64,000 nt of DNA. Source: an uncultured Candidatus Saccharibacteria bacterium (lineage in GTDB: Bacteria > Patescibacteriota > Minisyncoccia > UBA6257). Every line of letters begins with the position of its first letter. The stretch's first letter is position 1. The stretch lies in contig CAZUBI010000001.1 in NCBI GenBank assembly GCA_964618625.1, forward strand, positions 164,781 to 228,780, in the 5' to 3' direction. Made by a program: the position numbers and the translations under genes. Positions 14,271 to 47,800 of the stretch are shown one piece after another. Below the pieces are notes generated by a model that made no database searches, was not told the origin of the DNA, and worked only from the letters and a program-made list of their open reading frames with translations.

Positions 14271-16112
14271 TTATTTATTCTCATCAATTTGTGGTATAAG
14301 AAGTTGCGGTCGTTCTTTTATTTCTTGTTGAATAAATTTATCTAAGCTATCCTTTATTAAAATGAGTTGGGCGCGTTGTTTTTCTGTCAATTTAAATTCC
14401 ACATCTTTTAAATCTCCATCCTTAAATAAAATACCAAGCGCTTGTATTTCCCGAGGCTTACTAGGATTATTTGATGGTAAATTAAACTCGGTCCGAATAT
14501 TTTCTATAAGATCTCCGAAGTCATCTATTTCTTTCTTCAAAACCGTTTCTAAATTTTTACCAAATACTAACAACCTATTGTTAATTACTATCTCTGCATT
14601 TTTAACCTTCCTAATATCATCCATGGAAATATCGAAAGCGGTTGAATCTTTATTTTGAGCACTAGATTGATTAAGCACTTTAATAATTCTTTCGTTTATG
14701 CCATTTTCGCTGTTTGCCTCATCTCTATCAATCACTATAAGACAAGGGATTCCGAAAGCAGTAAGAAAAGTATAAATGGATGGAATATTATTTTTTCCAT
14801 CCGCTATTACCAACGCAAATTGATTTTTATCAATATTTGAAAAAGAATGAAATACCTCTGCGTCAGAGGGCCCTTCTACAATAACCGCTCTAGGAGCGAA
14901 AAGAGCTTCCCTCAAGCCGTTTGCAACTGTTTCAATAAGACTGTAATGAATATGTTGATCACTAATATTCTCTTTCTGTTGTCCCAAAGAAATTGTATGC
15001 TTCCTAAGTAGGGTACTATCCACATGTCTAACACTTATATTTTTATTTTCTTCCCATAAGACAACTATGTCTTCAAAGCTCCCGCAATCAATAAAATCTT
15101 CCGAATGAGTAGTATAAATTATTTGCCCTTCGGTATCCTCAGTTTTAATAGCTTGTTTCAAAACAGTAAACAAAGTTTTTCTTGCTTGTGGATGAAGGTA
15201 GCTTTCTGGCTCTTCTACTAAAAGCACAGCCCGATTATTTCTACTGTGTCTTTTCAAATAAGTTCGATAAATAGCTATAATTGCTAGTCTTTGAACACCT
15301 TCTCCTAATGTTTCCAACGGAACTTTGTTGCCATGTCTTTTAACCGAAAGCTTAAACTGACGATAATACCGCCATGGTTCATAATCAAGAAACTCCAGAT
15401 CTGTTCCACTAAGATTTAGAGGCTTAATCTGGCCCCAAAAAGTTTTTATATCTTTCTCAATATTCTTAAATTCCTGAGGGGCTCTTAATACCTTGACTGC
15501 ATCCGATATTTTCTTTTCAAATTCTTCTACTTTTTTCCCTTCATCTTCTTCGCTAAATATTCTTTCAACCTTCTGCAACATTCTCCCCAAAACACCCCAC
15601 TTGTTTGATGGTTGTTCGCCCTGAAGTTTTATCAGAGGAATCGTAATAACAACTGGTAAATTATTCTTGATATCCTGGCTTATTCTTATTTCGTTCTCCC
15701 ATTTATTTTTGGCTATTTCCCAATCACATTTATTAAAATCGTTTATCGTGTTGAGGAGAAAATAGTCAACACCAACAGAAGATTCACCATATCCAGTTTT
15801 TAAATGGTAGGCTTCAATAAGCAAACCGATAACTTCTTTATTTTCCCCGTAATAGGAAATTTCAATTGGGCTATTAAATTCCGCCGCTAGAATAATCTTT
15901 CTAGAAAGTTTATTGTTATAAAAATCATTTTCATTAAATTGGCTAGATGGCCATTTATCACCAAACAAAATATCTAGTGCCTTCAAAATGGTACTTTTGC
16001 CAACATTATTTGGACCAATCAAAGCAGTAAGACCAGAATTAGAAAATTCTATTATGACTGGTTCATCACCAAAACAGCGATAATTTTTTATTAGAAGCCT
16101 TTTTATAAACAT
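14271..16112 (-). CDS. OLD-family ATP-dependent endonuclease (AAA ATPase + Toprim)
   Basis: 613 aa; N-terminal Walker A GPNNVGKST in the LLIKNYRCF..LTALIGPNNVGKSTILKAL context typical of OLD/AAA_15-21; C-terminal Toprim block AVIVEGPSDAEVF. Confidence 0.8.
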   Translation of the reverse strand: MFIKRLLIKNYRCFGDEPVIIEFSNSGLTALIGPNNVGKSTILKALDILFGDKWPSSQFNENDFYNNKLSRKIILAAEFNSPIEISYYGENKEVIGLLIEAYHLKTGYGESSVGVDYFLLNTINDFNKCDWEIAKNKWENEIRISQDIKNNLPVVITIPLIKLQGEQPSNKWGVLGRMLQKVERIFSEEDEGKKVEEFEKKISDAVKVLRAPQEFKNIEKDIKTFWGQIKPLNLSGTDLEFLDYEPWRYYRQFKLSVKRHGNKVPLETLGEGVQRLAIIAIYRTYLKRHSRNNRAVLLVEEPESYLHPQARKTLFTVLKQAIKTEDTEGQIIYTTHSEDFIDCGSFEDIVVLWEENKNISVRHVDSTLLRKHTISLGQQKENISDQHIHYSLIETVANGLREALFAPRAVIVEGPSDAEVFHSFSNIDKNQFALVIADGKNNIPSIYTFLTAFGIPCLIVIDRDEANSENGINERIIKVLNQSSAQNKDSTAFDISMDDIRKVKNAEIVINNRLLVFGKNLETVLKKEIDDFGDLIENIRTEFNLPSNNPSKPREIQALGILFKDGDLKDVEFKLTEKQRAQLILIKDSLDKFIQQEIKERPQLLIPQIDENK

Positions 16113-16166
16113 AAAGATTTTAGTTCTTCAATTTTTCCCAATATTTCTTCCTATTTTTTATTATTT

Positions 16167-16238
16167 TTTATTTTCGACCTTTTTTATTTTTCAACTTGTC
16201 CTGAGCCTGTCGAAGGATTAATTTTTGACCTTTTGGTT
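16167..16238. repeat. junction repeat (partial copy plus long variant)
   Basis: TTATTTTCGACCTTTTTT ... TCAACTTGTCCTGAGCCTGTCGAAGGATTAATTTTTGACCTTTTGGTT. Confidence 0.8.
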
Positions 16239-16269
16239 ATTACGTTCAAAAATCAGACCTCATAATAAA

Positions 16270-17883
16270 TTAACTTTCGGACTCAGTGCCCATAGTCATA
16301 AAAGATACATTGTATCTAAATGCTCCATTCAATCTTTTTTGTGCATTTCGTAAATTTATTTTGCTAAAAAATGGAATATCAATTAAATTTCCATGCTTAC
16401 TGACAATCGCAAAAACAATTGTATATTCTGATGACTCTGGTCTTGTAATGGGCACTAATGATCTATGCGAAGAAGGTAAGATATCTCGCACTTTTTTTCT
16501 AAACTCTACATCAGACAAAAACAATTCTCCCGATACAAGACCTTGCGAAAATAGATGACTTAATACTGATGATGCGCCATATCGTTTGACATGAATAATC
16601 TTTTTATCACTGGTTAAAAGATCACAAAATTCAATCTTGCTATGGGCACCACCGTGAGAAACAAGTTTGCTATCCATATTACACACTCCTGAAAGCTCCA
16701 CGGATACTCTCTTATTATACTCGTCTTCCTTCTCTCCTTTTTGAGATTCTGGCAAACTAACAACTGGTGTAATCGTTCGGATACCCTCAAAATGATTATT
16801 AATTTCGTTAGCGAAATTAGTCTCTACTTCATACCATCTCCCATTGCTCAAAATATATGTTTTATCATTCTTTGTTAACTCTCCATATAAACAATTATAT
16901 GCTTTCCAGTGATCAATTAACTCCTCATTTTCTGCACCAATGCAATCAATAATTTCCGATTTAAATATTCCCAATGATAAATTATCACGAGCATTTGGAT
17001 CTAATGCCATAATAAAATCTTGTAAATAAATATCGTCACCTAGCGAATTTTTATTGCTTTCCATGCGAAATTCTAAAACTTTTTCCCATGGAATAATACT
17101 TGGAATTGCCATCCAAATTTTTTCTATATCTTCTATGCCTGAATTCTTAACTTTTTCTATCAGCTCATTATTTAATTCCTCAATAATCTTCGGGGATTTA
17201 ATTTCTGCAATATTATCTATCCAACTAAAATTGTTTTTATAATCACTACTATTATATTTTTCATAACATAATTTAAGAAAATTCTTGATATTTTTTAATT
17301 TTATTTTTATAGAAAGTGACAAAGCATCTTTTCCTGTAACTGTTTGTCCAAACTCTTCAAATTTCGATTTACCAGTCATTCCTTGTAGTAAATCTTGCTC
17401 AATATCAATTCCAAAATCTGCAACTGACCCACTTCTGGTCATTTGTTCAGTCACAAGCTTTGGAATAACTGTCATGTTCTTCCTATCAATATTTCTAATA
17501 TTCTCATGGTCAATTATATTAACTAAAACTTTGAGCCCAAACCGTTCTTCCCATACACCAGGATTCAAAAGCGTTCTACCATAACCAAATGTTACAGCAA
17601 ACAATCTACCTTCCACTTGAACAAGAAGGACTGCTTTTGCGCTGGCACTAAATATCTTAAGTTTATTATTGCCGTTTAGTTTTATATAATTATCAAAATC
17701 ACTCCCAAAAAACTTTTTAAGCCAAGTCGGTGAAAATATGTATGACTCCCCATAATAAATGTTCCCTACCTCATCTATTTGTTCGGTACTCAAATCATCA
17801 ACATTTTTAAAAATATCTACATCATTTGTATATTCATCTTTGATGAGATAAATCGTTAATTTGTTGCAATATTCTCTTGGCAT
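16270..17883 (-). CDS. hypothetical 537-aa protein immediately upstream of the OLD nuclease
   Basis: Long uninterrupted ORF; no motif I can assign; N-terminus MPREYCNKLTIYLIKDEY. Confidence 0.7.
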   Translation of the reverse strand: MPREYCNKLTIYLIKDEYTNDVDIFKNVDDLSTEQIDEVGNIYYGESYIFSPTWLKKFFGSDFDNYIKLNGNNKLKIFSASAKAVLLVQVEGRLFAVTFGYGRTLLNPGVWEERFGLKVLVNIIDHENIRNIDRKNMTVIPKLVTEQMTRSGSVADFGIDIEQDLLQGMTGKSKFEEFGQTVTGKDALSLSIKIKLKNIKNFLKLCYEKYNSSDYKNNFSWIDNIAEIKSPKIIEELNNELIEKVKNSGIEDIEKIWMAIPSIIPWEKVLEFRMESNKNSLGDDIYLQDFIMALDPNARDNLSLGIFKSEIIDCIGAENEELIDHWKAYNCLYGELTKNDKTYILSNGRWYEVETNFANEINNHFEGIRTITPVVSLPESQKGEKEDEYNKRVSVELSGVCNMDSKLVSHGGAHSKIEFCDLLTSDKKIIHVKRYGASSVLSHLFSQGLVSGELFLSDVEFRKKVRDILPSSHRSLVPITRPESSEYTIVFAIVSKHGNLIDIPFFSKINLRNAQKRLNGAFRYNVSFMTMGTESES

Positions 17884-17886
17884 ACT

Positions 17887-17914
17887 TTTTCAATTAATTT
17901 TTGACCTTTTGGTT
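17887..17914. repeat. junction repeat
   Basis: TTTTCAATTAATTTTTGACCTTTTGGTT, followed by GGGC (GTTGGGC). Confidence 0.8.
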
Positions 17915-18697
17915 GGGCAATTTTGAAGGTTGAATCTCTAAACGGTTTATTAAAAAATTACCAGATTCGAATTGTTCTTTTTGATTTTGATTTAAAGAAT
18001 TTTCTAAATATCCCAAAAGGTTATCCAAAATCTGTTTGCTATCTCCAACTAGTTGGTGATAGCTGTCAGAATTTCTAAGATCATTAAAATCCCATAAGGC
18101 TCTAAGCCCATTTTTAAAATTAGCCTTAAGAACAGTAATTATTTCTTCTATATGATTTTTTGCTTCTCCGATGTTTTCCGCAATTAAATATCTGATGGTT
18201 CTAAGGTAATAAAAAATTATTTGATTTTCAGGATCTAATAAGGTTTTTTGGAAAATACCCATCATTTGAATACTATTTATTGTTTCATCAAAATTATGGA
18301 AGTCTTTTATAAGTAAGTAAGCCTCTAAAAGTTCTAAGGTGGTATTAGAATCTGGTTTAATATATGAGGCTTCTTTTAACCTATTTATGGCGCTAATATA
18401 GTTTCTCGTTTTAATATGGCTCCTTCCATCCTGTTCTAATCTTTCAAATCTATTCTCTATTAGTTGCTTAAAAACAAGCCAAATAGAAAATATCGCGAAA
18501 ACTAAAATGCCTATTTGGGTTAAAAAATTCAAAAACCCAAATAACAAATTCAAGTCTTCTGCCATATCTAATCTCCGAATCATAGAAATTCCAAATATTA
18601 CCAAAATTAAAGTTCCTACCACGACCGTAGTCCAAAATCTTATATTAAAGGATGGAAACTTAAATATTTTTTCCCAAAATGTTTTTTTGTTATTCAT
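17894..18697 (-). CDS. membrane protein with cytoplasmic helical domain
   Basis: 267 aa; 2-3 N-terminal TM helices; C-terminus NQKVKN* is read from the junction repeat. Confidence 0.55.
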   Translation of the reverse strand: MNNKKTFWEKIFKFPSFNIRFWTTVVVGTLILVIFGISMIRRLDMAEDLNLLFGFLNFLTQIGILVFAIFSIWLVFKQLIENRFERLEQDGRSHIKTRNYISAINRLKEASYIKPDSNTTLELLEAYLLIKDFHNFDETINSIQMMGIFQKTLLDPENQIIFYYLRTIRYLIAENIGEAKNHIEEIITVLKANFKNGLRALWDFNDLRNSDSYHQLVGDSKQILDNLLGYLENSLNQNQKEQFESGNFLINRLEIQPSKLPNQKVKN

Positions 18698-18748
18698 ATT
18701 CTCTTAATCCTTTTGTTCGTTAAGATAATTTAAGCATTAAAGTCAAAT

Positions 18749-19039
18749 CTAAATTATTTTCTTTTTAAATTCTCTCATTTTTTTTCTTTCTGCATACTCC
18801 TTGAATGCTACCTGTTGTCCTTTGTCTTTTTCGTTTGTTTCCTTGGTCTCAACTTCGCCAATAATCTCTTCTTTACCTTTTTTTGCAATCCAATCAGGAA
18901 CATATCCCTTTATCTTTTTCGGCTTGTCATAGCCTGGAAGATCGGCTTTTACTTTATATCCTTGACCTTCATACCATTTAACACTTCTTAAAACTGCTTC
19001 ATCGTGTTGTTTTTGACCAATTTTGGTTCTTTTTTTCAT
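18749..19039 (-). CDS. small basic hypothetical protein
   Basis: 96 aa, Lys-rich; 2 bp downstream of the AIPR-like gene. Confidence 0.45.
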   Translation of the reverse strand: MKKRTKIGQKQHDEAVLRSVKWYEGQGYKVKADLPGYDKPKKIKGYVPDWIAKKGKEEIIGEVETKETNEKDKGQQVAFKEYAERKKMREFKKKII

Positions 19040-19041
19040 AA

Positions 19042-20670
19042 TTATTTTTCAATTAATTTTTCTACTACTTTCCAAGTTGCTTCATTTTTAAAAATATTAT
19101 TATAACTATATTCTTTGCCTTCCTTTTTTCTTATTATCTTAGCCGCTTTTTTGCAAAAATTAACAGCCTTTTTAAAACTTTGCACTTCTTTTTTATCGTA
19201 GTTATATAAAAAAGTCATAATATGAAAATTAGCATGATCTAAAAATGCTCTTTTGTTCTTATTATTGACGCCTTTTAATATCTTCTTCTCTCTTTTTATT
19301 TCTTCTTGTACAAAGATACAATAATCACAAATCTTTGTTATTTCATCTATTTTTAATTCTTCCTCGTTAAAAATCTCTTTGTATATTGATTTATCCCCTT
19401 TTATTATGTCAAATAGATCCTTTTTAGAAGATTTAGCTTTAGCTGGTTTCATATATTTACAAGAATAAATCCACTGCCCTAAATCAGTAATCAATATTTT
19501 GTCCTTAATTCCTGGCTTCTTTTTCCTTTGATATGAATAACCTTCTAGATTCAATATTTCTTCTAGCGTTTTTTGAATGAAATCATTTGTCCTAAGATCC
19601 CACTTATCTATTTTTCTTTGAGTATTAGTAGATTGGCAAACCGAATTTATCTCATTTTCATCCTCTGCCTCAAAAAGTCTAGTCAAAATCATAATTTTTT
19701 TACAGTCGCCTGCTAAAATTTCCTTATTTTGATACATATTATAAAGAGTACTTAATGATTGACATCCGTTTATAATTTGAGGATTGATAACATTAAAAAC
19801 ATATTTATCACTTATTTGTTTCAAATTCTTGCAGCTGACAGTAATACCATTATGAAAAAGATAAAATTTATTTTTTCGTTCTAAAATTGTATTTTTGAAA
19901 CTAAATTTTAGGCTTTTATCATTTTGATTAACTCTAATATTATCTTCAAAAATATTATATTTTTCATCATCTGCTTTTTCAAACATATCTAATAGTTTAA
20001 TCAATAAAACTTTACCAATAACAATACGATTTTTTTTATCATAAAAAGAACTATTATCTTGAAATTCTATCCTATCTAAAAAGTTAATCTTTTTCGAATA
20101 ATTAATATCTACTTTGACCAAATCTCTTAAATTAAGTAATTTCAATTCTACTCCTGTGTAATTATTGAGATGTGATTCTAGATTTTTTTTTAATTTATTC
20201 TCCGCATTCTTTTTGTCTGAATATCTTATTATGTTTAAATATATTTTATAATTTCCTTTTAAAAATCTTTTCCTTGCTTCCTTAATCTTCTTTGCCGCCA
20301 AAGGATTTAAATTATGCAAAGAAGTATTTGGATTGAAAAAATTCCTTTTTAATTCTTCTAAAAAACCATTAAGAATACTCTGACGATCAAATCCCTCGCT
20401 TTTAACATCTAAAATATTAATCTGCTTTTTTGCCTTGTTTACAACTATCGCATCAACCCCTCCATCCTTTTTTCCATCCGTAATCAATTCTTTATTATAT
20501 ATTTCATCATTATTAAAGCCAAAAAGTATTTTTATAATAGTTATGATCGCAGCATAAGCGTTTTCGCTCGAGCCCTTCATAGAATAATGTTCTCGATTGT
20601 GACTGAAAATCTTTTTAGCTAATTTAAAATCTTGATTTATTCTCCTTTCTATATATTCTTTTAAAAGCAT
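19042..20670 (-). CDS. AIPR-family (abortive infection phage resistance) protein
   Basis: 542 aa; N-terminal ITDGKKDGGVDAIVV block resembles the AIPR DG..DGGIDA signature; C-terminus EKLIEK* overlaps a junction-repeat copy. Confidence 0.6.
   Translation of the reverse strand: MLLKEYIERRINQDFKLAKKIFSHNREHYSMKGSSENAYAAIITIIKILFGFNNDEIYNKELITDGKKDGGVDAIVVNKAKKQINILDVKSEGFDRQSILNGFLEELKRNFFNPNTSLHNLNPLAAKKIKEARKRFLKGNYKIYLNIIRYSDKKNAENKLKKNLESHLNNYTGVELKLLNLRDLVKVDINYSKKINFLDRIEFQDNSSFYDKKNRIVIGKVLLIKLLDMFEKADDEKYNIFEDNIRVNQNDKSLKFSFKNTILERKNKFYLFHNGITVSCKNLKQISDKYVFNVINPQIINGCQSLSTLYNMYQNKEILAGDCKKIMILTRLFEAEDENEINSVCQSTNTQRKIDKWDLRTNDFIQKTLEEILNLEGYSYQRKKKPGIKDKILITDLGQWIYSCKYMKPAKAKSSKKDLFDIIKGDKSIYKEIFNEEELKIDEITKICDYCIFVQEEIKREKKILKGVNNKNKRAFLDHANFHIMTFLYNYDKKEVQSFKKAVNFCKKAAKIIRKKEGKEYSYNNIFKNEATWKVVEKLIEK
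19046..19065. repeat. junction repeat (CTAC subtype; inside the AIPR-like ORF 3' end)
   Basis: TTTTCAATTAATTTTTCTAC. Confidence 0.75.
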
Positions 20671-20721
20671 GTGTGATGAAATATTATATTTATCTATAGT
20701 GTTTTACTATATTTTATCAAT

Positions 20722-21492
20722 TTATTTCTCTAAAATCCGAAATTTCCCTGATTTTACTAATTTGATACTGTTATAATTTTTTGGATTCTCAAATTCAAAC
20801 TGCCAAATTGAATAGAGATCCTCACCGTGTGCTTTATCAAAAAATAAAGTAATTACTTTTTTTCTTATCTGCTCTTGCCATTGCCTAAAAGGATAGTAAA
20901 GCTGACGAATAATTACATTTGCTGCACTAAAGTTCTTTGCTTCAATTAATACAACCTGCTTCTTACCTTCATACCCAGCATCAACTTCAGTTTGTACACT
21001 TGAAACTTTAATTTTTTGTTTGCCAACTCTAAAGTCAAAGCTAGGTGTATATTTTCTACCTCGTATTGTAAGAACAAGCGAAGGATCATTCATAAAAGTA
21101 CGAATCAAACTTGAGGCATAAGCATAATCAAGATGCTGCATTTCTGAATTACCGATTCTTGCAGTATCTAATTGAAAATCTAATTTTGAGGAATAAATTG
21201 ACACTTCTTTTTTAATTTCTGGAATATCAACATAACCTTCTCCTTTAATAATATTATAATATCCATTTTTTACAGGAAGTAAAAATAAATTATGCTTTTG
21301 AAAAATGTCTGGTCTATCCTTTCGTCTGTCCTGCTTGCACAAAATACGAACCTCTTTTTTACCTGTTTCTTTAAACCTTTGACAAGCCTGCTTTATCTGT
21401 TTTGCAGAAAGTAAAAACGGTGATTTATCAAAATCATGATCTAAGATTTTATAATCATCAAATATCTTTTTCCAAGATTTACTATTTGCCAT
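20722..21492 (-). CDS. type II restriction endonuclease (putative)
   Basis: 256 aa; immediately downstream of the methyltransferase (15 bp gap); D..EGKKQVVLIEAK PD-(D/E)xK-like block. Confidence 0.55.
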   Translation of the reverse strand: MANSKSWKKIFDDYKILDHDFDKSPFLLSAKQIKQACQRFKETGKKEVRILCKQDRRKDRPDIFQKHNLFLLPVKNGYYNIIKGEGYVDIPEIKKEVSIYSSKLDFQLDTARIGNSEMQHLDYAYASSLIRTFMNDPSLVLTIRGRKYTPSFDFRVGKQKIKVSSVQTEVDAGYEGKKQVVLIEAKNFSAANVIIRQLYYPFRQWQEQIRKKVITLFFDKAHGEDLYSIWQFEFENPKNYNSIKLVKSGKFRILEK

Positions 21493-21507
21493 AATATCAA
21501 AAACAAT

Positions 21508-22464
21508 TTATTTTTTAAGACTATGATTTAATTTTTTAAAACGCTTTATTGATAAATCTAAATATTTTTTTTCTGTATCAATACCTACAAATTTTCTATT
21601 GTTAAAACATGCAGCTAAACCTGTCGTCGAACTACCTGTAAAAGGATCTAAAATAATATTGCCTTTATTTGTGCTTGCTAATACTATTCTTTTAAGTAAT
21701 TCAAGCGGCTTTTGGGTTGGATGTTTTCCAAATACTTTTTCTTCCTTTTTAGGAGTTGTTATAGCCCATACAGAACGCATTTGTTTCCCTTTCTTATGCA
21801 TTGGCTCTATAAACTCATCATTCTGACAACGAATCTTATAATTATTATCCCAATCTCGCATTAGTTTATAATTAAAAGTGTGTTTTACTTTTTTATATTT
21901 TCGCGCCCATAAAATTGTTTCATGGCTAGCTGTGAAATAACGACAACTTAAATTGGGTGAAGCATTTGGCTTAAACCATGAAATATCATTTAGTATATGA
22001 AAGCCGGCAACTTGTAAAGCAAACCCACATTGATAAATAGAATGATAAGTTCCGCTAATCCAAATTGTTCCGTTTGGTTTTAATACACGCCTGCATGCTT
22101 TAATCCACTCCAAATAAAATTCAAAATCCTTTTTTAATCCATTGCTTTTATCCCATTTACCTTTATTTACACTTACACGTTTCCCAGCATGAACCGTAAA
22201 TCCTCCGTTAGAAAGCAAATAAGGAGGGTCGGCAAATATCATATCAATTGAATTTTCTGGCAATTGTTCTAGTATTTTTAGACAATCAGATCTATATAAC
22301 ACAAAATCGCCTTTGGAAAAATAAGGCTTTTGCTTGATAGAAAAAAGTATTTTCTTATTTATACTCATAAAGTTGTTTTCTATCTCCGGAACTAATATTT
22401 TTATCTTTTCGCATCTATAATTAAGATCTAATTGTATTAAATTTTGTTTGTTACGGTGGGGCAT
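21508..22464 (-). CDS. DNA methyltransferase, beta-class amino-MTase (N6-adenine or N4-cytosine)
   Basis: 318 aa; motif IV DPPY (IFADPPYLL) precedes motif I FTGSSTTG near the C-terminus, which is the beta-class order. Confidence 0.85.
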   Translation of the reverse strand: MPHRNKQNLIQLDLNYRCEKIKILVPEIENNFMSINKKILFSIKQKPYFSKGDFVLYRSDCLKILEQLPENSIDMIFADPPYLLSNGGFTVHAGKRVSVNKGKWDKSNGLKKDFEFYLEWIKACRRVLKPNGTIWISGTYHSIYQCGFALQVAGFHILNDISWFKPNASPNLSCRYFTASHETILWARKYKKVKHTFNYKLMRDWDNNYKIRCQNDEFIEPMHKKGKQMRSVWAITTPKKEEKVFGKHPTQKPLELLKRIVLASTNKGNIILDPFTGSSTTGLAACFNNRKFVGIDTEKKYLDLSIKRFKKLNHSLKK

Positions 22465-22505
22465 AGTTTTAAATTGTTATATTGTTAAATTATTGATTGC
22501 TATGT

Positions 22506-22694
22506 TTATTTTTTTGGCTTCCAATCACTAATTGTAATTGTTTTCTTTTTTTCGTTTATTTTAAGTTCAACTTTCTGTCTTTCTCTCCAGCGCCATTTTC
22601 GAATAATATCTATAGGCAAAGTAACAGCATAGCTTTTTTTGCCTACTTTTGTAATTTTTCTAATATTTTTTTCTTTAATTTTTCTCCTTGGCAT
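22506..22694 (-). CDS. AbrB/SpoVT/MazE-family small DNA-binding protein (controller-like)
   Basis: 62 aa; KVGKKSYAVTLPIDIIRKW..ELKINEKKKTITI swapped-hairpin pattern; three ATTACGTAAT palindromes in its own leader. Confidence 0.65.
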   Translation of the reverse strand: MPRRKIKEKNIRKITKVGKKSYAVTLPIDIIRKWRWRERQKVELKINEKKKTITISDWKPKK

Positions 22695-22703
22695 TTTGAT
22701 TGT

Positions 22704-22745
22704 TTACGTAATATATTACGTAATTTATTACGTAATCCTATTATA
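22704..22745 (-). promoter_or_regulatory. promoter -10 (TATAAT) plus three tandem ATTACGTAAT palindromic operator boxes, 12-bp period
   Basis: Minus-strand reading: GGTATAATAGG ATTACGTAAT AA ATTACGTAAT AT ATTACGTAA ACAATCAAA ATG. Confidence 0.6.
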
Positions 22746-22814
22746 CCATTTTTTGTTTCAACCAACTATTATATATAGTACCCCTGTTATAAGATATTTT
22801 CAAACCCCAAAAAA

Positions 22815-22895
22815 TAACAAAAAAAGCCCTTAATTAGGCTTAAGATTTTGAAATGGTTCAGGAGGAGTAAGTAATTTATTACTTATTCCTCCTGA
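22815..22895 (-). terminator. conserved 3' element T1 (large GGAGG-containing hairpin, then AAGCC..GGGCTT hairpin plus U-tract)
   Basis: AAAAAAGCCCTTAATTAGGCTTAAGATTTTGAAATGGTTCAGGAGGAGTAAGTAATTTATTACTTATTCCTCC; similar copies at 23945-24015 and 27052-27145. Confidence 0.6.
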
Positions 22896-22901
22896 TATAC
22901 T

Positions 22902-23801
22902 TCAAATAACATAATATGTACTACGACAATGATAGTCATAGCACTTTTTCATTACCGCTTTAATAGCAGAATGAAAACATGACAATATTCCCGGTAATTC
23001 ATTCGGTTGCCCAGACCATATTTCTTTTTGCTCTATCCAGCATCTATTTCTCTTTTGAACTATAGAACATTGAATTAGATAAATTTTCTCTCCGTGATAA
23101 CCCTGACTACCTCTAGCAAGTACCGCAACTTGTGGAATCGAGAAATAGGCATGAATGCCATTAGACAAACTGCCACTTTTCGGTACCCAATATGGACGAA
23201 AAGCTTGTCCTCTTCTCCCACAAATAATTGTGGCACTCCCTCCGCTTGCCGTACTACCTCCTTCTTCAACCAATTCCATGCGAAGTTGCATATTGATTGA
23301 ATTAGGAATTAAAAACTTTGGTTTTTCCACTGCCTCTTTTTCCATCATCTTTTTATTCCTGTACCAATCTGCATATTCTCTTATAACGGTTGGTACATCT
23401 TGAGTCTTTAATTTCATCTCCTTTAAGGAATACCATGTTGTATAACGATCTCTACGATTATATCCTTTTTCATAAATCCATTGACTTGACCCAATAAGAA
23501 ATCTAAATTTCTCTTTAATCCCCCCTCTATCTTGATTTGCAACTTCAATAGTTCGAATAAAAAATAGTATATCATGGTAAAAATCCTTATCCCATCCCGA
23601 TTTATCCGGATCTTCTGGTTTTTCTTGTTCAAATCTTCCCTCTATTTCTGCGAGTTCAAGTGAATCAACTTTTTTAAGATTTATAACAATTCCTCCTCTA
23701 ACAATACGAGAATTGAATCCCTTATTTGTAAGAGATTCTTCCAAATCTTGATGTTCACCATAATGAAATCCGCTAATTTTGATTTCTTTTATTTCTCTCA
23801 T
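22902..23801 (-). CDS. hypothetical protein (module a cargo)
   Basis: ORF-track frame 22902-23867; likely start at MREIKEIK (ATG 23801), which is preceded by AAGGAG SD; the upstream codons in the track belong to the conserved leader. Confidence 0.6.
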   Translation of the reverse strand: MREIKEIKISGFHYGEHQDLEESLTNKGFNSRIVRGGIVINLKKVDSLELAEIEGRFEQEKPEDPDKSGWDKDFYHDILFFIRTIEVANQDRGGIKEKFRFLIGSSQWIYEKGYNRRDRYTTWYSLKEMKLKTQDVPTVIREYADWYRNKKMMEKEAVEKPKFLIPNSINMQLRMELVEEGGSTASGGSATIICGRRGQAFRPYWVPKSGSLSNGIHAYFSIPQVAVLARGSQGYHGEKIYLIQCSIVQKRNRCWIEQKEIWSGQPNELPGILSCFHSAIKAVMKKCYDYHCRSTYYVI

Positions 23802-23930
23802 TTCTTTCTCCTTTGTTCCCTTGCCTGTCATTACCAGATCAGGACTTGTGGAAACTAAAATTATCAAAGAACAGGCTAGTATCTAGCTTTATGCTAACAT
23901 ATTGGTGCTTAATCGTCAAGTATATAAATA
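23802..23930 (-). promoter_or_regulatory. conserved promoter plus 5' leader (module a)
   Basis: Leader CCTGATCTGGTAATGACAGGCAAGGGAACAAAGGAG shared with modules b and c; upstream TGTTCTTTGATAATTTTA block and TTGACG -35-like element. Confidence 0.5.
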
Positions 23931-23944
23931 ATGCCCCCGGCAAT

Positions 23945-24015
23945 AAAAAAAAGCCCTTAATTGGGCTTAAAGTTTTGGAAGGAGTAAGTATTTATTGCTT
24001 ACCCCTTCCGTTTTT
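23945..24015 (-). terminator. conserved 3' element T2
   Basis: AAAAAAAAGCCCTTAATTGGGCTTAAAGTTTTGGAAGGAGTAAGTATTTATTGCTTACCCCTTCC; hairpin plus T-run on the minus strand. Confidence 0.6.
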
Positions 24016-24023
24016 ATAATCTT

Positions 24024-24518
24024 TTATCTATATATTCCTTTCAGTGTGCAACCATAAAGATTAAACTCTATGCTTCTTATATCTCGATAAATATAAGTCG
24101 GGACTCGTACTTCTTTCTTACCAATTTTTATCCAAATACCATTATCCTTAATTTCAAAGGGAATATTCCTCTTAGTGTTTAAAAAATATAGTTCAACTAA
24201 TCTCTTCTTCTTCTTCTTTTGCTGTAGTTGATAATCCTTCATTATCTCAAAACAAATTTTCCAAGATGCCACTATTTCTTCTCCGCAGCTCTCTTCTTCA
24301 CAATTAATAGTAATCTCTTCTTCTTCTCCTGAAAAAAGAACTTCCTTTTCTAATCTCTTTTCTATCATTTTTCTTACAAAATCTTTGCTGGGAACACTTA
24401 TATCATCAACGTATTCTGCTGTCTGATCTAATGGAATACAAAACCCATTAATATACAAACCCTCTAAATTTGAAGAAATAAGCTTGACCTCTCCCCACAA
24501 TGTTTTAATTCTTGCCAT
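24024..24518 (-). CDS. hypothetical protein (module b, second gene)
   Basis: 164 aa; Glu-rich and Cys-containing; 38 bp downstream of module b gene 1. Confidence 0.55.
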   Translation of the reverse strand: MARIKTLWGEVKLISSNLEGLYINGFCIPLDQTAEYVDDISVPSKDFVRKMIEKRLEKEVLFSGEEEEITINCEEESCGEEIVASWKICFEIMKDYQLQQKKKKKRLVELYFLNTKRNIPFEIKDNGIWIKIGKKEVRVPTYIYRDIRSIEFNLYGCTLKGIYR

Positions 24519-24556
24519 TTTCTTTCCTCCTCTTTTATTTTTTTATCATTTATTCA

Positions 24557-24919
24557 TTACTTTTTTACTTTCAAAACAGAATCTAATTCATTTAATATCA
24601 AAACTTTCATTCTATTAATTGTTTCTTTAAATCCTATCTTTAGGTCCTCCTTTTTTAGAAAATACTTTTTTACGGGTGTTCTGCACTCTAATAAGCTAGC
24701 AGAAATGAGGAAATATTTTCCAAGAAGCTCTAATTCAAAAATCATTCCTGTAGCAGACAATTTAAACTCTATCTCGTATCCAGCATCTTGCGTCCCATAT
24801 ATTTCAATGGAATCTTTCAATATTCCTTCACTTCCTTCACCAAAACTCTCAATTATATAATCAATCACCCATTTTACCTTAGACGGGATATATCCAATAC
24901 CACCAATTTTCATTTTCAT
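24557..24919 (-). CDS. hypothetical protein (module b, first gene)
   Basis: ORF-track frame 24557-24949; likely start MKMKIGG (ATG 24919), which is preceded by GGAGG SD. Confidence 0.55.
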   Translation of the reverse strand: MKMKIGGIGYIPSKVKWVIDYIIESFGEGSEGILKDSIEIYGTQDAGYEIEFKLSATGMIFELELLGKYFLISASLLECRTPVKKYFLKKEDLKIGFKETINRMKVLILNELDSVLKVKK

Positions 24920-25050
24920 CTCTTTCCTCCATATTACCTTGCCTGTCATAAGTGCATCAGGGCTTATCGGTTTTTTTCAAAAAACTATACTATTATCTTG
25001 TATAATAGTATATTAACAGTAGACTGTCAAGTATATAAAATCACTGGCAA
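24920..25050 (-). promoter_or_regulatory. conserved promoter plus 5' leader (module b); upstream terminator hairpin
   Basis: Minus-strand reading: TTGACA-gtctactgttaatatac-TATTAT, then leader ..CCCTGATGCACTTATGACAGGCAAGGTAATATGGAGGAAAGAG ATG; ACTGGCAAATTGCCAGT hairpin just upstream. Confidence 0.6.
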
Positions 25051-25113
25051 ATTGCCAGTTTAAGAGTTTAAAGGTTTAAAGATTAAGAGATCTTTCGTTA
25101 TTGCTCAGGATGA

Positions 25114-26127
25114 CTATGAGATTGCCAGAAAAATAGATCTAAATATTTTATCAACTTCTTCTTTATAGAGATAACCCTCCTTAGCAAGAGTACTTCTTAC
25201 GGGACTGATCTCCTTATCGACAAAGGTCTGATCTCCTATTTTGTAAGTCTCAGTTTTTGTCTTAAATTTTGTCAAAGAATCACAGGGAGTACTTGCTAAT
25301 GGAAAACTATTAACTACACGCAATAAAGTGCCTGACACAATAAAGCGTCCTACTCTTAGCATATCAAAAACTTTATTTCTATCTTTACTTTCTTTGATAT
25401 AAGAAACAACAGAACTCTTGTTCTTGCCTTCAAGAAATACAACATCAAATCCTTGATATTTCCCCTTGCGAATTTTAACGTCTTTGGGGAATTTATTCTT
25501 CACTTCTCCCATTGCCTTTTCCAACTCCTTAATCTGTTCTTTAGTTATATAATCCTTCATCACACCACTTTTAAAAAGTTCCCTCAGAGTAGTTTTATCA
25601 CTCATTCCTGGTATGCTCATTCCTGGAACAGAAGCGTCTAAAAAGCCCTGCGTTGGCACTAAACGACGGCTTTCCAGAATTTGTTTGGCTGTTTTCTCAT
25701 TAGCGAGTTCTGTGATAATAATAAAACCATGATAATCAAATTTTTCTGCCACAGGAGCAAGTAAATCATCTTGTTTCAAGCTTTCTATTGCCTCGCTGCT
25801 TTGCTCTTTCAACTTTTGCACTTTTTGGATGAGATCCGTCTGCCCAAATGCTTGAGCATACGATTCCAGCATTTGCTCACCTTCTTGTTGAGCTCTTTCC
25901 CATATCTTTGGACCGTGTGGACGTTCTGAACCAATTATAATCGTTTGGCTAGTTTCACTTTCTGCAAAAACTCTTGGATTGATAAAATTAAGGTCAGCAT
26001 TACGCCGAGGGTCAATATGACCGATTTTTACCTTAAATCTTGTTTCATCTGCCTGACGTAAGATTTCCTCCCATTGTTTGGTAAGAAGCCAACTTTTAGA
26101 CAATATTTTAGTTATTTTTACCCCCAT
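25114..26127 (-). CDS. hypothetical protein
   Basis: 337 aa ORF; no recognisable motif. Confidence 0.6.
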   Translation of the reverse strand: MGVKITKILSKSWLLTKQWEEILRQADETRFKVKIGHIDPRRNADLNFINPRVFAESETSQTIIIGSERPHGPKIWERAQQEGEQMLESYAQAFGQTDLIQKVQKLKEQSSEAIESLKQDDLLAPVAEKFDYHGFIIITELANEKTAKQILESRRLVPTQGFLDASVPGMSIPGMSDKTTLRELFKSGVMKDYITKEQIKELEKAMGEVKNKFPKDVKIRKGKYQGFDVVFLEGKNKSSVVSYIKESKDRNKVFDMLRVGRFIVSGTLLRVVNSFPLASTPCDSLTKFKTKTETYKIGDQTFVDKEISPVRSTLAKEGYLYKEEVDKIFRSIFLAIS

Positions 26128-26192
26128 TTTTATAATATTAATAGGATGAGAATAAATTGTTAATTTTTAAACAATCCCATTGTGGATAACTC

Positions 26193-26221
26193 TTGCTTGA
26201 CATAAGGTTTTTTGATATAAT
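26193..26221 (+). promoter_or_regulatory. sigma70-type promoter with extended -10
   Basis: TTGCTT, 17 bp spacer, then TGATATAAT (TGnTATAAT); no protein-coding gene lies downstream on the plus strand. Confidence 0.55.
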
Positions 26222-26227
26222 GCAGAT

Positions 26228-26314
26228 GGTGCTTGGAGGGCCTTGGCCCTGTCACGGCTATATCCAAGCTGTACCCAAGTACCACTAAAGAATACCGTAA
26301 AAACGGTATTTTTT
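26228..26314 (+). ncRNA. candidate small RNA (~85 nt)
   Basis: Own promoter; GC-rich structured body (GGTGCTTGG pairs with CCAAGTACC; internal AGGGCCTTGGCCCT hairpin); ends in ACCGTAAAAACGGT hairpin plus TTTTTT. Confidence 0.35.
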
Positions 26315-26320
26315 AGTTGT

Positions 26321-26806
26321 TTAATCATTTTCAAGGTCTCCACTGTGTAAAATTCTCTTACTTGTTACTTTATCAACGCCCCAAAATGGAACTACGCTCC
26401 AAAAATGCTTTTCTCCGCCTAACACTTGTTTAATAATCACTTTTAGTCTTATAGTATCTATAACTGCAGTAAATTCATAATATATTACATCTTTCATAAC
26501 CTGCTCCCACCTGCTATTCATCTTTTGAACTTCAAATCTTCTTATTTGCCAAATACCTTGTAAAGTATGGGATCGTTTTAAAACTTCTGGCGCGAAATGA
26601 ATAAGTTTTAATCTTGAGTATTGATCTTTTTTAGGTCTGGCTTGCCTATTTGATTTAAATTTTAAATGTTTTAATCCTTTTGTGTTAAAAGCAATTTTTT
26701 CTTTAAAATAGGGGCAATAAATATCATTAATTGTTTTATAGAATTTTTCTGCTCCATTTTTAACTTTTAAAAAATCTTTTTCATCTTTAAAATTAAATTT
26801 TCCCAT
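26321..26806 (-). CDS. hypothetical protein
   Basis: 161 aa ORF; extended -10 TGATATAAT about 70 nt upstream on the minus strand. Confidence 0.55.
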   Translation of the reverse strand: MGKFNFKDEKDFLKVKNGAEKFYKTINDIYCPYFKEKIAFNTKGLKHLKFKSNRQARPKKDQYSRLKLIHFAPEVLKRSHTLQGIWQIRRFEVQKMNSRWEQVMKDVIYYEFTAVIDTIRLKVIIKQVLGGEKHFWSVVPFWGVDKVTSKRILHSGDLEND

Positions 26807-27051
26807 ATACTAAAAACATATCTTTTAATTTTCCCCATCAGTATGGTTCGACTTCACTCACCACAAGCTTTGTTTTTATTATGTAGTTATATTATATCAT
26901 AATCATGGTATATTCTTACCATAAATCAGGTTTTTATTTTGTTTACTCTTCTTTTAATAATTGCGCAAGAATCGCGCAAGAATCGCGCAAACAAAACCCA
27001 TTGTTTTCTCTTTATATTTTACCCTTATTAAGAGGTGTTTTCAAACCTCAA

Positions 27052-27145
27052 AAAACAAAAAAAGCCCTTAATTAGGCTTAAAATTTTGAAATGTTTGGGA
27101 AGGAGTAAAATATTATGATTTTCATAATACTTTACTCCTTCTATT
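27052..27145 (-). terminator. conserved 3' element T3
   Basis: AAAAAAAGCCCTTAATTAGGCTTAAAATTTTGAAATGTTTGGGAAGGAGTAAAATATTATGATTTTCATAATACTTTACTCCTTC. Confidence 0.6.
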
Positions 27146-27173
27146 CTTTATAAATACGTGTTCTTTAGGGAAA

Positions 27174-27530
27174 TTAAACAAAATCCTCAATTTTTGGCCC
27201 CCTCGAGGGATCAAATCCGATCCAAACTCCCTCGATCCAAGTTCCATTCTTGTTGAATCTTTTTCCAGCAGCTATTCTCTTTACAATCTTTTGTAAATTA
27301 CAGAGAATAGCTTTCCGTCTTCCAAGAATAAAAATTTTATCCACAAAAGGCCCAGTACTACCTCTACCACGCATATGCAACACTAAATTTAAGATTGAAC
27401 ATTGATTCTCGCTTAAAACTTTCTTAAGAACTTTTAAAATTTCCTCTTTGGTTGCTAATAAACTATCTTCTTTGGTCCCCGGGTCTTCCCACAAAGAAAT
27501 TTCCTTTGTGAGAATTTGTGGCATTCCCAT
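27174..27530 (-). CDS. hypothetical protein (module c cargo)
   Basis: ORF-track frame 27174-27590; likely start MGMPQ (ATG 27530) after AAGGAG SD; the first ~25 residues resemble those of module a. Confidence 0.55.
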   Translation of the reverse strand: MGMPQILTKEISLWEDPGTKEDSLLATKEEILKVLKKVLSENQCSILNLVLHMRGRGSTGPFVDKIFILGRRKAILCNLQKIVKRIAAGKRFNKNGTWIEGVWIGFDPSRGPKIEDFV

Positions 27531-27680
27531 TTCTTTTCTCCTTGTTCCCTTGCCTGTCGTTACCAATCCGATCAGGACTTTTGGGAACATATAAAATTAT
27601 CAAAGAACATTCTACTATTTATATAATGATATATTAATATATTTATATAATGGTATATTAATAATTGATTGTCAACAACT
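27531..27680 (-). promoter_or_regulatory. conserved promoter plus 5' leader (module c)
   Basis: TTGACA-atcaattattaatatac-CATTAT, then TGTTCTTTGATAATTTTA..AAGTCCTGATCGGATTGGTAACGACAGGCAAGGGAACAAGGAG ATG. Confidence 0.55.
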
Positions 27681-44881: not shown

Positions 44882-47800
44882 TTATATTTTAAAGGTGGAA
44901 CGTTCTTTAAATTCTTCCTGTTTTCCTTTATGCCATTGTTGTACAGGACGCAAATATCCGACAACTCTGGAATAAACCTCACAAGGCTGTTCTATTGTAC
45001 ATTTTGGACAAATAAAATGTTCCCCTGCTATATATCCATGAATAGGGCAGACAGAAAAAGTAGGCGTAAGAGTAAAATATGGCAAACGGAATTTTTCAAA
45101 AACAATTTTAATTAAAGATTTTACTGATTCAGAATCAGACACTGCTTCTCCTAGGAAAGAATGAAATACCGTATTATGAATAAATACTAAAGTATTTTTA
45201 CCAGCTAAATAATTATGATTTTTTTGAGTGGTCAAATCATAAAATTGATTATCTTTCACATCAACTTTTGAAATTTTCTTTACTCTGATTACGGGTAAAA
45301 ATCTTTTCTTTCTATTAGAAAACTTATTGTTAATTCTTTCTTTATTAACAGTGTTTTTTAATTGATCTTTTATTTTAATCATCTCGTATTGTGGTATTCG
45401 AATCCGCCAAATATCCACCTCATTTTTTCTTTTATTTTTCTTCCTTGTCTTACCGACCATAATTCCAGCGATTGAGCAAATCTCTAAAATATCATCAGCT
45501 AACCCCTCGGAAACAGTATAATATTCGAAAAACCCATCTCTTTTATCAATATGACCATCGCTATCCATTAACCCTGATAAAAGTGAATAAAAATTCTCTT
45601 TTCTAATGTTCGCTTTTACTATTTCAGGAATTCTTATTATATAAGTTTTTTCTCCAAAAGAAAATCCATATTTAAAGAAAAACTGCCAAACAGCTTTTTT
45701 AGACGTTGAAACACATCTCAATAATTTACTCCTTTTATCATTTTGTATTACATTCACATGACAATTAAAATATTTATTAAGAATATTCTTTATTTTGCTT
45801 AGTGCTACTCGATGTTCGGAAAAAAAACGCACTACAAATTTTTCAATCTGATTTCCTCCTCGATTATCAAAAAACTGAGAGATGGAACCATCGCCAATAA
45901 AAAATCCAATTAACCACATTAAATTATTATCTAGCCTAGATGATTTTTCTAAATAAAGATTGAAAGAGTTTTGTAAAATATAATCACTTTTCTTCAGCTC
46001 ATCTGCTCTTTTTTCTATTACTCTATATTTTGACATTTTTGAATACTTCAATCGACATTGTGCATGATGCTTTAAATGAACAGCAAAACCTTTAATATTG
46101 CTTACCTTTTCTTGACAAATAGGACAACAAGAATCAGGTTTTATCTTTTCCAAAACAAAAAATGGATGCCAATCAGAAGTAGTAATATCCATTCCCTTCT
46201 CTCCCTTTATCCTAATTTTATTCTTTTTTTTAACATTAATTTTAAAAACATCAACAATTGCGTCCCATTCGCTAACGCCTTTCTTTAAATTGTAGCTTAA
46301 AGCTTTAATGGGTTTTAATTTTTCAAAATTCTCTACTATTTCTTCTATTTTAATCAAACCTTTATTAGTCAAAACTTTATTCCCTTTCTCAATACATCCA
46401 CCTGTATATTTTGTTTGTAAAGAATCCTGTAATTTTAAAGCTTCAAATAAATCATCTGTGTAATTTACAGGTAGTTGGGTGGAATTAGTATAATAAGGCT
46501 CTTTTCCCCCTGCAGTAATAATATCAGGATATTTTTTCTTATCTTTTAGCGCCAAACGATAAGAAGTTCCTTCGGCAGGAGTAGCCTCTAAATTATATAG
46601 ATTTCCGGTTTCTTCCTGATACTCTACCAACCTATCACGCATAAAATCTAATACTTCTAAAGCAAATTTAACTCCTTTTTTATTACCTAAATTTATTCCC
46701 AAAAAATTAAGAAGCGCTTCATTCATGCCAATCAATCCAATGGTGGAAAAATGATTGCCCCAATAACAACTTCTCATCTTCTTCACTCCGTTTAAATAAT
46801 ATTTTGCATAAGGATAAAGCCCTTTATCTGTCCAATCTTCCAAAACCTTTCTTTTTATTTCCAAGCTTATTTTAGCTAAATTCATTATATGCGCTAATTT
46901 TTGGAAAAATTCTTTTTTTGTTTTGGATAAATAAGCCAAACGAGGCATATTAATCGTTGCCACGCCAATACTCCCTGTGAGCGGAGCTGCTCCAAACAAT
47001 CCTCCTCCACGTTTATAAAGTTCTCTATTATCCAACCTAAGTCGACAGCACATTGAACGCGAATCTTCTGGACTCATATCAGAATTGATAAAATTTGAAA
47101 AATATGGAATTCCGTACTTTGCCGTCATTTTCCAAATTCCATCATAAACTGGATTATTCCAGTCAAAATCTTTAGTAATGTTATAAGTAGGAATAGGGAA
47201 GGTAAAAACTCTTCCACTCGCATCACCATCTACATAAACCTCGCAAAACGCCTGATTAAGCATATCCATTTCTTCTTGAAACTCTTTGTAAGTTTCTTTT
47301 TGATGCTCACCACCAATTATCACAGGCAACTCTTTAAAATGACTTGGAACTTTTAAATCCAAAGTAAGATTTTCAAAAGGGGTTTGAAAGCCTACTCTTG
47401 TAGGGATATTACAATTAAAAAGAAATTCCTGCAAAGATTGTTTTACCTCATTATAGGTTAAATTATCATAACGAATAAAAGGCGCTAATAAAGTATCAAA
47501 ATTAGAAAAAGCCTGGGCCCCGGCTCCTTCTCCTTGTAATGTATAGAAAAAATTAACTACTTGACCTAAAGCAGAACGAAAATGTTTTGCAGGTTTTGAT
47601 TGAATTTTACCAAAAACTCCACCAAATCCTTTTAAAAGAAGATCATATAAATCCCAGCCACAACAATAAGTGGCTAAAATATCTAAATTATGAATATGAA
47701 AATCTCCGCTTTCAGTTGCTTCCCTGACTTCTGGCGGATAAATTTTTCTCAACCAGTATTTTTTTGCCACATAAGCAGCAACATAATGATTTAATCCCTG

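Follow-up and report, generated by a model that had tools for sequence, protein, structure and literature searches.

Gene content of the locus

The locus considered here lies in what we call the window, the whole 64-kb stretch of DNA that was analysed. A gene for a 62-aa protein on the minus strand (22506..22694) is followed on the same strand by a gene for a beta-class N6/N4 DNA methyltransferase (21508..22464; PF01555, E=1.7e-59; PADLOC MTase_II, E=1.4e-98) and then by a candidate type II restriction endonuclease gene (20722..21492; DUF6996+DUF6997; PADLOC REase_II, E=4.2e-37). These Pfam and PADLOC matches agree with an earlier, sequence-only reading of this DNA, which had placed restriction-modification (R-M) genes downstream of the small gene. 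A consensus scan of the minus strand found no terminator-like site between 22694 and 20722. The run of genes behind the regulator on this strand (14271-22694) consists of the methyltransferase, the endonuclease, an AIPR/AbiU-like protein, an AHJR-like nuclease, a 267-aa unknown protein, a DUF6119 protein and an OLD-family AAA_15+TOPRIM ATPase; because of the AIPR/AbiU-like protein, the AHJR-like nuclease, DUF6119 and the OLD-family ATPase, we consider this region to be a defence island.

A spacer containing short TTTAACAAT-like repeats and ending in ATGCCCCACCGT sits 3' of the regulator gene (22453..22505, minus strand). The repeats, of the form TTTAACAAT(A/T), are arranged in tandem at 22470-22500, between the regulator stop codon and ATGCCCCACCGT, and are expanded in one related locus (L136, 690-740); a further regulatory site and a hotspot of recombination are both conceivable. 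The methyltransferase ORF as listed opens at ATGCCCCACCGT and its profile matches start only at residue 46, which suggests that the start was mis-called and that Met33, at 22368, is more likely. The window is bacterial, with rpoB, a single-chain rpoC (beta'), FtsA, FtsZ and ClpB and a G+C content of 32.5%; the single-chain beta', FtsA, FtsZ and ClpB rule out an archaeal origin. Elsewhere in the window, the gene for NrdD (anaerobic ribonucleotide reductase, 44882-48217) contains an intein with a LAGLIDADG homing-endonuclease domain.

The 62-aa protein

The small gene had been read as AbrB-like, and profile, model and structural matches agree on this point. The protein matches PF04014 (MazE/AbrB/SpoVT) with 28.8 bits, above the cut-off of 24.7, over residues 17-61, and its AlphaFold2 model (single chain, 29-sequence alignment, pLDDT 77) is a beta-beta-alpha-beta-beta half-barrel with elements E13-16, E22-25, H28-33, E42-47 and E52-57. 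Fourteen of the 15 best Foldseek matches are AbrB-type, with a probability of up to 0.92 and E-values that are weak because the domain is tiny. The top matches are the single-domain archaeal AbrB proteins 5itj/5itm, SpoVT, MazE and AbrB-N, and the same archaeal proteins are the best sequence matches in the PDB. Alignment with hhalign placed P27/D29/R32 on P19/E21/R24 of AbrB and LPIDIIR on IPIELRR. R12, K16 and R32 are nearly invariant in the family, R32 being the residue that aligns with AbrB R24.

The AbrB domain takes up residues 12-57 of 62, and Pfam, the model and Foldseek revealed no second domain beyond AbrB/MazE/SpoVT. The protein has no match to a helix-turn-helix (HTH) family, its fold being half of a beta-barrel. 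Searches of the window by tblastn and by HMM on six-frame ORFs recovered no paralogue, only the gene itself. The 62-aa protein is a bona fide single-domain member of the AbrB/MazE/SpoVT superfamily, neither an MraZ nor an antitoxin, and we propose that it is a repressor.

Promoter and tandem boxes

Read on the minus strand, the DNA preceding the gene consists, in order, of TGgTATAAT, agg, ATTACGTAAT, aa, ATTACGTAAT, at, ATTACGTAAa, caatcaaa and ATG. The extended -10 (TGgTATAAT, 22748..22740) is followed 3 nt later by an array of three boxes that occupies the entire leader. Boxes 1 (22727..22736) and 2 (22715..22724) are perfect 10-bp palindromes, ATTACGTAAT, and box 3 (ATTACGTAAa, 22703..22712) is a 9/10 match with a perfect 8-bp core, TTACGTAA; the start-to-start distance is exactly 12 bp for all three. 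The ATG (22694..22692) lies 8 nt past box 3, and no Shine-Dalgarno sequence is present in these 8 nt. We infer that transcription starts at about 22732-22734, within box 1.

The earlier reading had singled out positions 22704-22745 as three perfect palindromes with a 12-bp period between the -10 box and the start codon. One limit of this interval is indeed the end of box 3 and the other the first T of the -10 hexamer, and both the period and the position are exact on the minus strand. Perfection extends to boxes 1 and 2 but not to box 3, where it is confined to the TTACGTAA core. TATAAT is a plausible -10, as had been assumed; it belongs to an extended TGnTATAAT that the closest relatives keep even though they differ further upstream. 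Five copies of TTACGTAA are present in the 64 kb where 0.95 would be expected; five was reached in 0/100 shuffles, and the array accounts for three of these copies. The remaining two (6957 and 11321), considered as extra targets, were rejected: they lie inside ORFs and look like chance occurrences.

The consensus site of PAR proteins is RTTAYGTAAY, and ATTACGTAAT fits it letter for letter. The resemblance to bZIP or PAR sites that had been remarked upon is therefore a true string match, yet it is a coincidence without biological content: short AT-rich palindromes are easily shared by chance, no bZIP protein is involved, the cores of the relatives are quite different and the candidate binder is a swapped-hairpin beta-barrel.

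The region upstream of the promoter

By alignment with its relatives, the conserved module has its 5' limit at about 22752, some 4 nt upstream of the extended -10. Beyond it lies a possible promoter, P1 (TTGAAA, 17 nt, TACTAT; 22775..22803, minus strand), which belongs to a repeated intergenic element outside the conserved regulator module: a repeat copy of the element at 27013-27063 reads TTGAAA-17-TAAAAT, and P1 is missing from four of the close relatives (L003-L006). The upstream transcription unit ends, according to a consensus scan, at an intrinsic-terminator-like hairpin, AAGCCTAATTAAGGGCTT, with a T run (22824..22841, minus strand). The terminator sequence AAGCCTAATTAAGGGCTTTTTTT is itself repeated, at 22821-22844, 23948-23971 and 27059-27082. 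More generally, 22770-27660 is made up of gene cassettes bounded by repeated elements, including conserved 5' leaders of ~50-90 nt with an AAGGAG ribosome-binding site (23798-23885, 24916-24965 and 27527-27621); none of the three enclosed genes scanned against Pfam gave a match.

About 150 bp upstream, at 22871..22882, the 12-mer formed at the junction of boxes 1 and 2, GTAATTTATTAC, occurs once more. Perfect matches to GTAATNNATTAC in the 64 kb are limited to three, this distal site and two within the array. The distal copy sits at the apex, GTAATAAATTAC, of a near-perfect 38-bp palindrome, TCAGGAGGAATAAGTAATAAATTACTTACTCCTCCTGA (22858-22895, minus strand), at the 3' end of the upstream ORF and before the terminator; the combined fold of palindrome and terminator has an energy of -33.5 kcal/mol (z=-6.3). 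The apex sequence differs in the further copies of this hairpin element, present in the window and in L002, and for this reason we did not count 22871-22882 as an operator; a role for the distal GTAATTTATTAC as an auxiliary site is possible.

Related loci and their arrays

A protein search for relatives returned 56 clusters, most of them carrying PF04014, and a profile search of 1.84 billion representatives returned 511 clusters at E<=1e-3 and 185 at E<=1e-10. The members are nearly all 55-65 aa long and come overwhelmingly from Patescibacteria/CPR genomes. We read the DNA upstream of 80 metagenome loci and of 54 genome (GTDB) loci, the latter found in a scan with a narrow alignment. Nearly all of these ~130 loci have 2-5 tandem 12-bp units near the start codon. 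With a lax rule (up to 2 mismatches per 8-mer), at least two units were present in 119/122 non-redundant upstream regions and at least three in 67/122, with a median distance from array to ATG of 11 nt. A strict rule (at most 1 mismatch and at least 2 G/C per core) gave arrays of at least three units at period 12 in 18/77 upstream regions, compared to 0.08% of 1,211 control windows from the same contigs, and none in the 77 regions at the other periods from 8 to 16. In 20 loci, against 1.8 expected, the distance from the end of a -10-like hexamer to the first 8-bp core is exactly 4 nt, as in the window. This geometry is not universal, since in some relatives, such as L013 and L044, 30-100 nt separate the array from the ATG or the array precedes the -10.

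Among the six closest loci, similarity opens at AAAATGGTATAATA, the sequences further upstream are unrelated, and AAATGGTATAATA is invariant. Two further loci have TGtTATAAT (L081) and TGcTATAAT (L082), so that they differ only at the free n of TGnTATAAT, the pattern to be expected of a functional promoter with this extended -10. The window has three units where L001-L006, L081 and L082 (~87-97% identity) have two, a difference of exactly 12 bp. L081 and L082 (95-97% identity), the closest relatives in the genome collection, come from bins labelled Pacearchaeota and Helarchaeota, which are archaea; this points either to mis-binning or to a recent transfer of the module.

Several genomes have two or three paralogues of the regulator (L084/L086/L094, L104/L123/L132, L110/L131, L087/L088 and L101/L127). 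Some pairs have clearly different operators, such as CGTAATTACG vs AATACGTATT in JABMQE, and others have operators that are nearly alike (L087/L088); insulation and cross-talk between paralogues may both occur.

Box sequence and protein sequence

The sequence of the repeats varies by lineage, in step with the beta1-beta2 loop of the neighbouring protein. Proteins with a standard IRK-to-LP segment (e.g. ITKVGKKSYAVT) are found next to TACGTA-type cores (TTACGTAA, GTACGTAC, ATACGTAT), the outer units frequently being TAAGTA or TACTTA. Those with one residue more (ITKxAGGSSYxIT) are accompanied by CTACTGAG/CTCAGTAG units and those with one residue less (IIKSGDSYAIT) by AATACTGATTTAAATCAGTATT, LSRIGN proteins by TACCTA/TAGGTA and RNIQ...SYY proteins by CCTAGG or CTTAAG; further lineages have TCCCAGCA, TCACAGCA, ACAGTA or CGTAATTACG. 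Counted over 126 non-redundant protein-array pairs, at least two TACTGA/TCAGTA units occur with 21/44 proteins of non-standard length and with 0/82 standard ones (Fisher p=5e-12), and at least two TACGTA units with 34/82 standard proteins and 1/44 of the others (p=5e-7), p-values that overstate independence because shared ancestry is ignored. The many distinct pairings of box and protein are nevertheless hard to explain unless the protein reads the repeats.

Genes following the regulator

Regulators about 71-95% identical to that of the window, with the same boxes, precede different cargo. In L002 this is an SDH-type protease and in L005 a type III Mod; L003 has an unknown protein followed by a NERD nuclease, L004 has RadC with a type III Mod, L001 has the N-terminal domains of RadC and HsdR, and L007 has a type I HsdM. 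Even where regulators are 92-100% identical to that of the window and share its boxes, the cargo is quite different. In L136, an identical protein with the same three boxes is followed by another gene, and its similarity to the window ends exactly at the regulator stop codon. An identical stretch of 500 bp is present in SRR8482192, one of the source samples. ATGCCCCACCGT is found again ~30-230 nt 3' of the regulator gene in most close relatives; it opens the RadC-like gene (MPHRKKQK...) in L001/L004/L006, lies within a terminator hairpin in L003/L005/L136 and is in-frame with the methyltransferase ORF in the window. This suggests that cargo is swapped at one spot.

We surveyed downstream genes more widely by naive ORF calls and family counts (Pfam/PADLOC). 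The top families among 52 first downstream ORFs of the metagenome set were type I, II, IIG and III methyltransferases, ResIII/HsdR, DpnI and AriA/PtuA-type ATPases; NYN, MazG and RadC were present as well. Cargo in the genome (GTDB) set was more mixed, with P-type ATPases, EF-G-like GTPases, RRF and R-M genes, and we rejected an association with defence alone, since housekeeping genes also follow family members in this set. A tblastn search of the 80 loci with the methyltransferase, endonuclease and AIPR proteins of the window gave only two weak methyltransferase matches and one endonuclease fragment; the regulator is therefore not tied to the R-M system of the window. To judge from these comparisons, the promoter-operator-gene unit is portable.

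Discussion

We consider it likely that the adjacent 62-aa protein binds the three boxes as its cognate operator array and that negative autoregulation results. An autoregulatory operator had already been proposed from the boxes themselves, and the comparative backing for this idea is now strong: homologues have 12-bp arrays in the same position, which co-vary with the protein. In the mechanism that we propose, swapped-hairpin homodimers of the 62-aa protein would bind one to each 12-bp unit, with neighbouring dimers binding cooperatively, side by side over the transcription start and the leader. The occupied array would block open-complex formation or promoter escape, because it begins 3 nt past the -10 and the predicted start site is inside box 1, and would also stop any read-through from the weak upstream TTGAAA-17-TACTAT promoter. 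In a naive cell, a burst of expression would thus give way to a low steady state. The AbrB-related protein MraZ is a precedent: it represses the operon to which it belongs by binding cooperatively to an array of 3-4 repeated boxes, one AbrB-type cradle to each box, and the transcription start lies within the first of them (PMC12957436).

Two registers can be envisaged for the bound dimers, either on three TTACGTAA cores or on two GTAATnnATTAC palindromes with flanking half-sites. The junction-centred GTAATnnATTAC register would be more economical for arrays such as L070 and L033, in which the outer half-sites differ from the inner ones. Binding to the same face of the DNA would need distortion of the helix, since a 12-bp period exceeds one helical turn. 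The autoregulatory feedback probably also limits how strongly the R-M genes are expressed, given their predicted co-transcription, no terminator having been detected between them and the regulator. Control of downstream genes is not guaranteed throughout the family, because a terminator-like hairpin lies 3' of the regulator gene in L003, L005 and L136, where the regulator may be monocistronic.

Five other explanations of the boxes were weighed. The one that survives best, and which is still improbable, is a timer of the C-protein type, in which the protein activates at low dose and represses at high dose, delaying the endonuclease relative to the methyltransferase upon entry of the R-M system into a new cell. 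The earlier reading had likewise taken the boxes as probably setting the expression timing of the R-M genes, an idea that fits their geometry poorly. A small DNA-binding-type gene does head the R-M unit here, the sites are several and of unequal quality (box 3 is the 9/10 match), and the circuits of C.PvuII and C.AhdI rest on multi-site operators (PMC2175313, PMC2275141). Against this, every box is downstream of the -10 and none is at an activator position, a geometry that would permit repression only. The methyltransferase gene precedes the endonuclease gene on the same strand and lies between it and the regulator, so that one promoter could not delay the endonuclease relative to the methyltransferase. 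In addition, the fold is not helix-turn-helix, and the same module is found before cargo that needs no delay (SDH-type protease, RadC, NERD, type I/III subunits).

The boxes could also be bound by some other host factor, or be a neutral tandem duplication without function, given that slippage can yield tandem 12-bp units and that the number of units does vary. This is very unlikely, as the same period and position recur at more than 100 loci with differing sequences that track the adjacent protein, and the array moves with the gene as one conserved module. Slightly less credible again is an action at the RNA level, with the self-complementary repeats of the 5' leader forming a hairpin that controls translation or mRNA stability. 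The leader folds to -8.9 kcal/mol (z=-2.9 vs shuffles) and there is no Shine-Dalgarno sequence before the ATG, but what is conserved among the relatives is period and position rather than base pairing: direct repeats that are unable to pair, such as AATTACATATTT x3 in L057 and ACAGTA in L115/L118, keep the 12-bp phasing, and the array upstream of the -10 in L013 would stay untranscribed.

We give the least credit to two readings, between which we see nothing to choose. In the first, the boxes are clustered R-M target sites (e.g. TACGTA or ACGT), and promoter methylation tunes expression. The boxes do hold short palindromes of the kind recognised by type II systems, and ACGT is mildly under-represented in the window (44 vs 65 expected); however, TACGTA is not avoided (6 vs 4.1 expected), the same boxes accompany unrelated cargo in relatives, including non-R-M cargo, and it is the regulator, not the cargo, with which their sequence co-varies. 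The most depleted palindromes in the 64-kb window are GATC, CTAG and GGCC, a small sample for inferring an R-M site. In the second, the protein is a MazE/VapB-type antitoxin and the boxes a toxin-antitoxin operator: the Pfam family bears the name MazE_antitoxin, a relative carries the label of antitoxin in one database source and AbrB-fold antitoxins (MazE, VapB, PrlF) autoregulate via palindromes in their own promoters, but the domain fills the protein with no toxin-binding tail, the downstream gene encodes a DNA methyltransferase rather than a member of a toxin family, R-M and other large enzymes predominate among the 52 downstream genes of the metagenome set, and no toxin family is among the 25 most frequent downstream families listed for the relatives.

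Returning to the autoregulatory array, a wider reading, whose chances we put as even, is that the locus represents an undescribed family of ~60-aa single-domain AbrB-fold repressors, each with its own 12-bp array, that form a self-repressed portable cassette before exchangeable cargo. On this reading, the family would comprise ~500 clusters at 50% identity, almost all from Patescibacteria/CPR; recombination would place the cassette, and the cargo would very often be R-M genes of types I, II, IIG and III or other defence genes. The family would be a non-HTH counterpart of the C proteins, with its specificity reprogrammed via the beta1-beta2 loop. A search of the full-text literature, subscription journals excepted, gave no report linking AbrB/SpoVT to R-M control, to C proteins, or to CPR or Patescibacteria. 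We thus found no earlier description of AbrB-type control of R-M/defence operons, although an autorepressor with an operator array is in itself a known kind of system. The single locus is ordinary; the family is of moderate to high interest.

The regulators known for R-M and defence systems are mainly helix-turn-helix C proteins, the N-terminal domains of methyltransferases and antisense RNAs. A controller of AbrB fold, its operator logic unlike theirs, would be a further class, and would offer a handle on how CPR bacteria, with their reduced genomes and few transcription factors, restrain toxic defence genes. How AbrB-type barrels read DNA is a long-standing puzzle, AbrB itself being without a clear consensus. 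The family offers dozens of natural protein-operator pairs (TACGTA, TACTGA, CCTAGG, CTTAAG, CCCAGC and others), and with so many sharp and differing sites on one 60-residue scaffold the recognition code is directly testable. The promoter-operator-repressor cassette, of ~250 bp and with orthogonal specificities, could also serve synthetic biology.

Comparison with known regulators

The C proteins of R-M systems (C.PvuII, C.AhdI, C.Esp1396I) resemble the present regulator in that a small protein of DNA-binding type heads the R-M unit, with repeated sites in its own promoter to which it is expected to bind, feeding back on expression. They differ in fold, C proteins being helix-turn-helix (Xre-type) where the 62-aa protein is AbrB-type, and in operator layout: C-boxes lie upstream of or across the -35 and bring about activation followed by repression, whereas all the sites described here are between the -10 and the ATG. 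Normally a C gene shares its transcript with the endonuclease gene, while the next gene here is the methyltransferase, and the module also serves cargo other than R-M genes. The functional likeness to C proteins extends to HsdC of Mollicutes, which serves type I systems too and uses direct repeats (PMC5282649).

MraZ is a likeness as regards the operator, being AbrB-related and repressing from evenly spaced repeated boxes with the start inside a box (PMC12957436). It is encoded by the first gene of its operon, and each AbrB-type cradle contacts one major groove (PMC12957436). MraZ is, however, a protein of ~150 aa with two fused half-barrels that assembles into 8-12-mer rings, whereas the 62-aa protein is a single half-barrel that must dimerise and is devoid of the ring-forming helices. 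The boxes of MraZ are direct repeats with a period of ~10 bp, while those described here are mostly palindromic and have a period of 12 bp. MraZ controls cell-division genes; the neighbours here are defence genes, and ftsA and ftsZ are ~26 kb away.

The MazE/VapB/PrlF antitoxins belong to the same Pfam family, but the 62-aa protein has neither a toxin-binding tail nor an adjacent toxin gene. The best matches share the swapped-hairpin fold: AbrB, SpoVT, Sso7c4, 5itj/5itm and C68/C56 of Sulfolobus plasmids. The LPI(D/E)xxR segment of the family is conserved and aligns with P19/E21/R24 of AbrB. AbrB binds many promoters without a sharp consensus, and proteins of the Sso7c4 type have been described as chromatin-like. 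In contrast to both, the family to which the 62-aa protein belongs has sharply defined, lineage-specific candidate operators beside its own gene.
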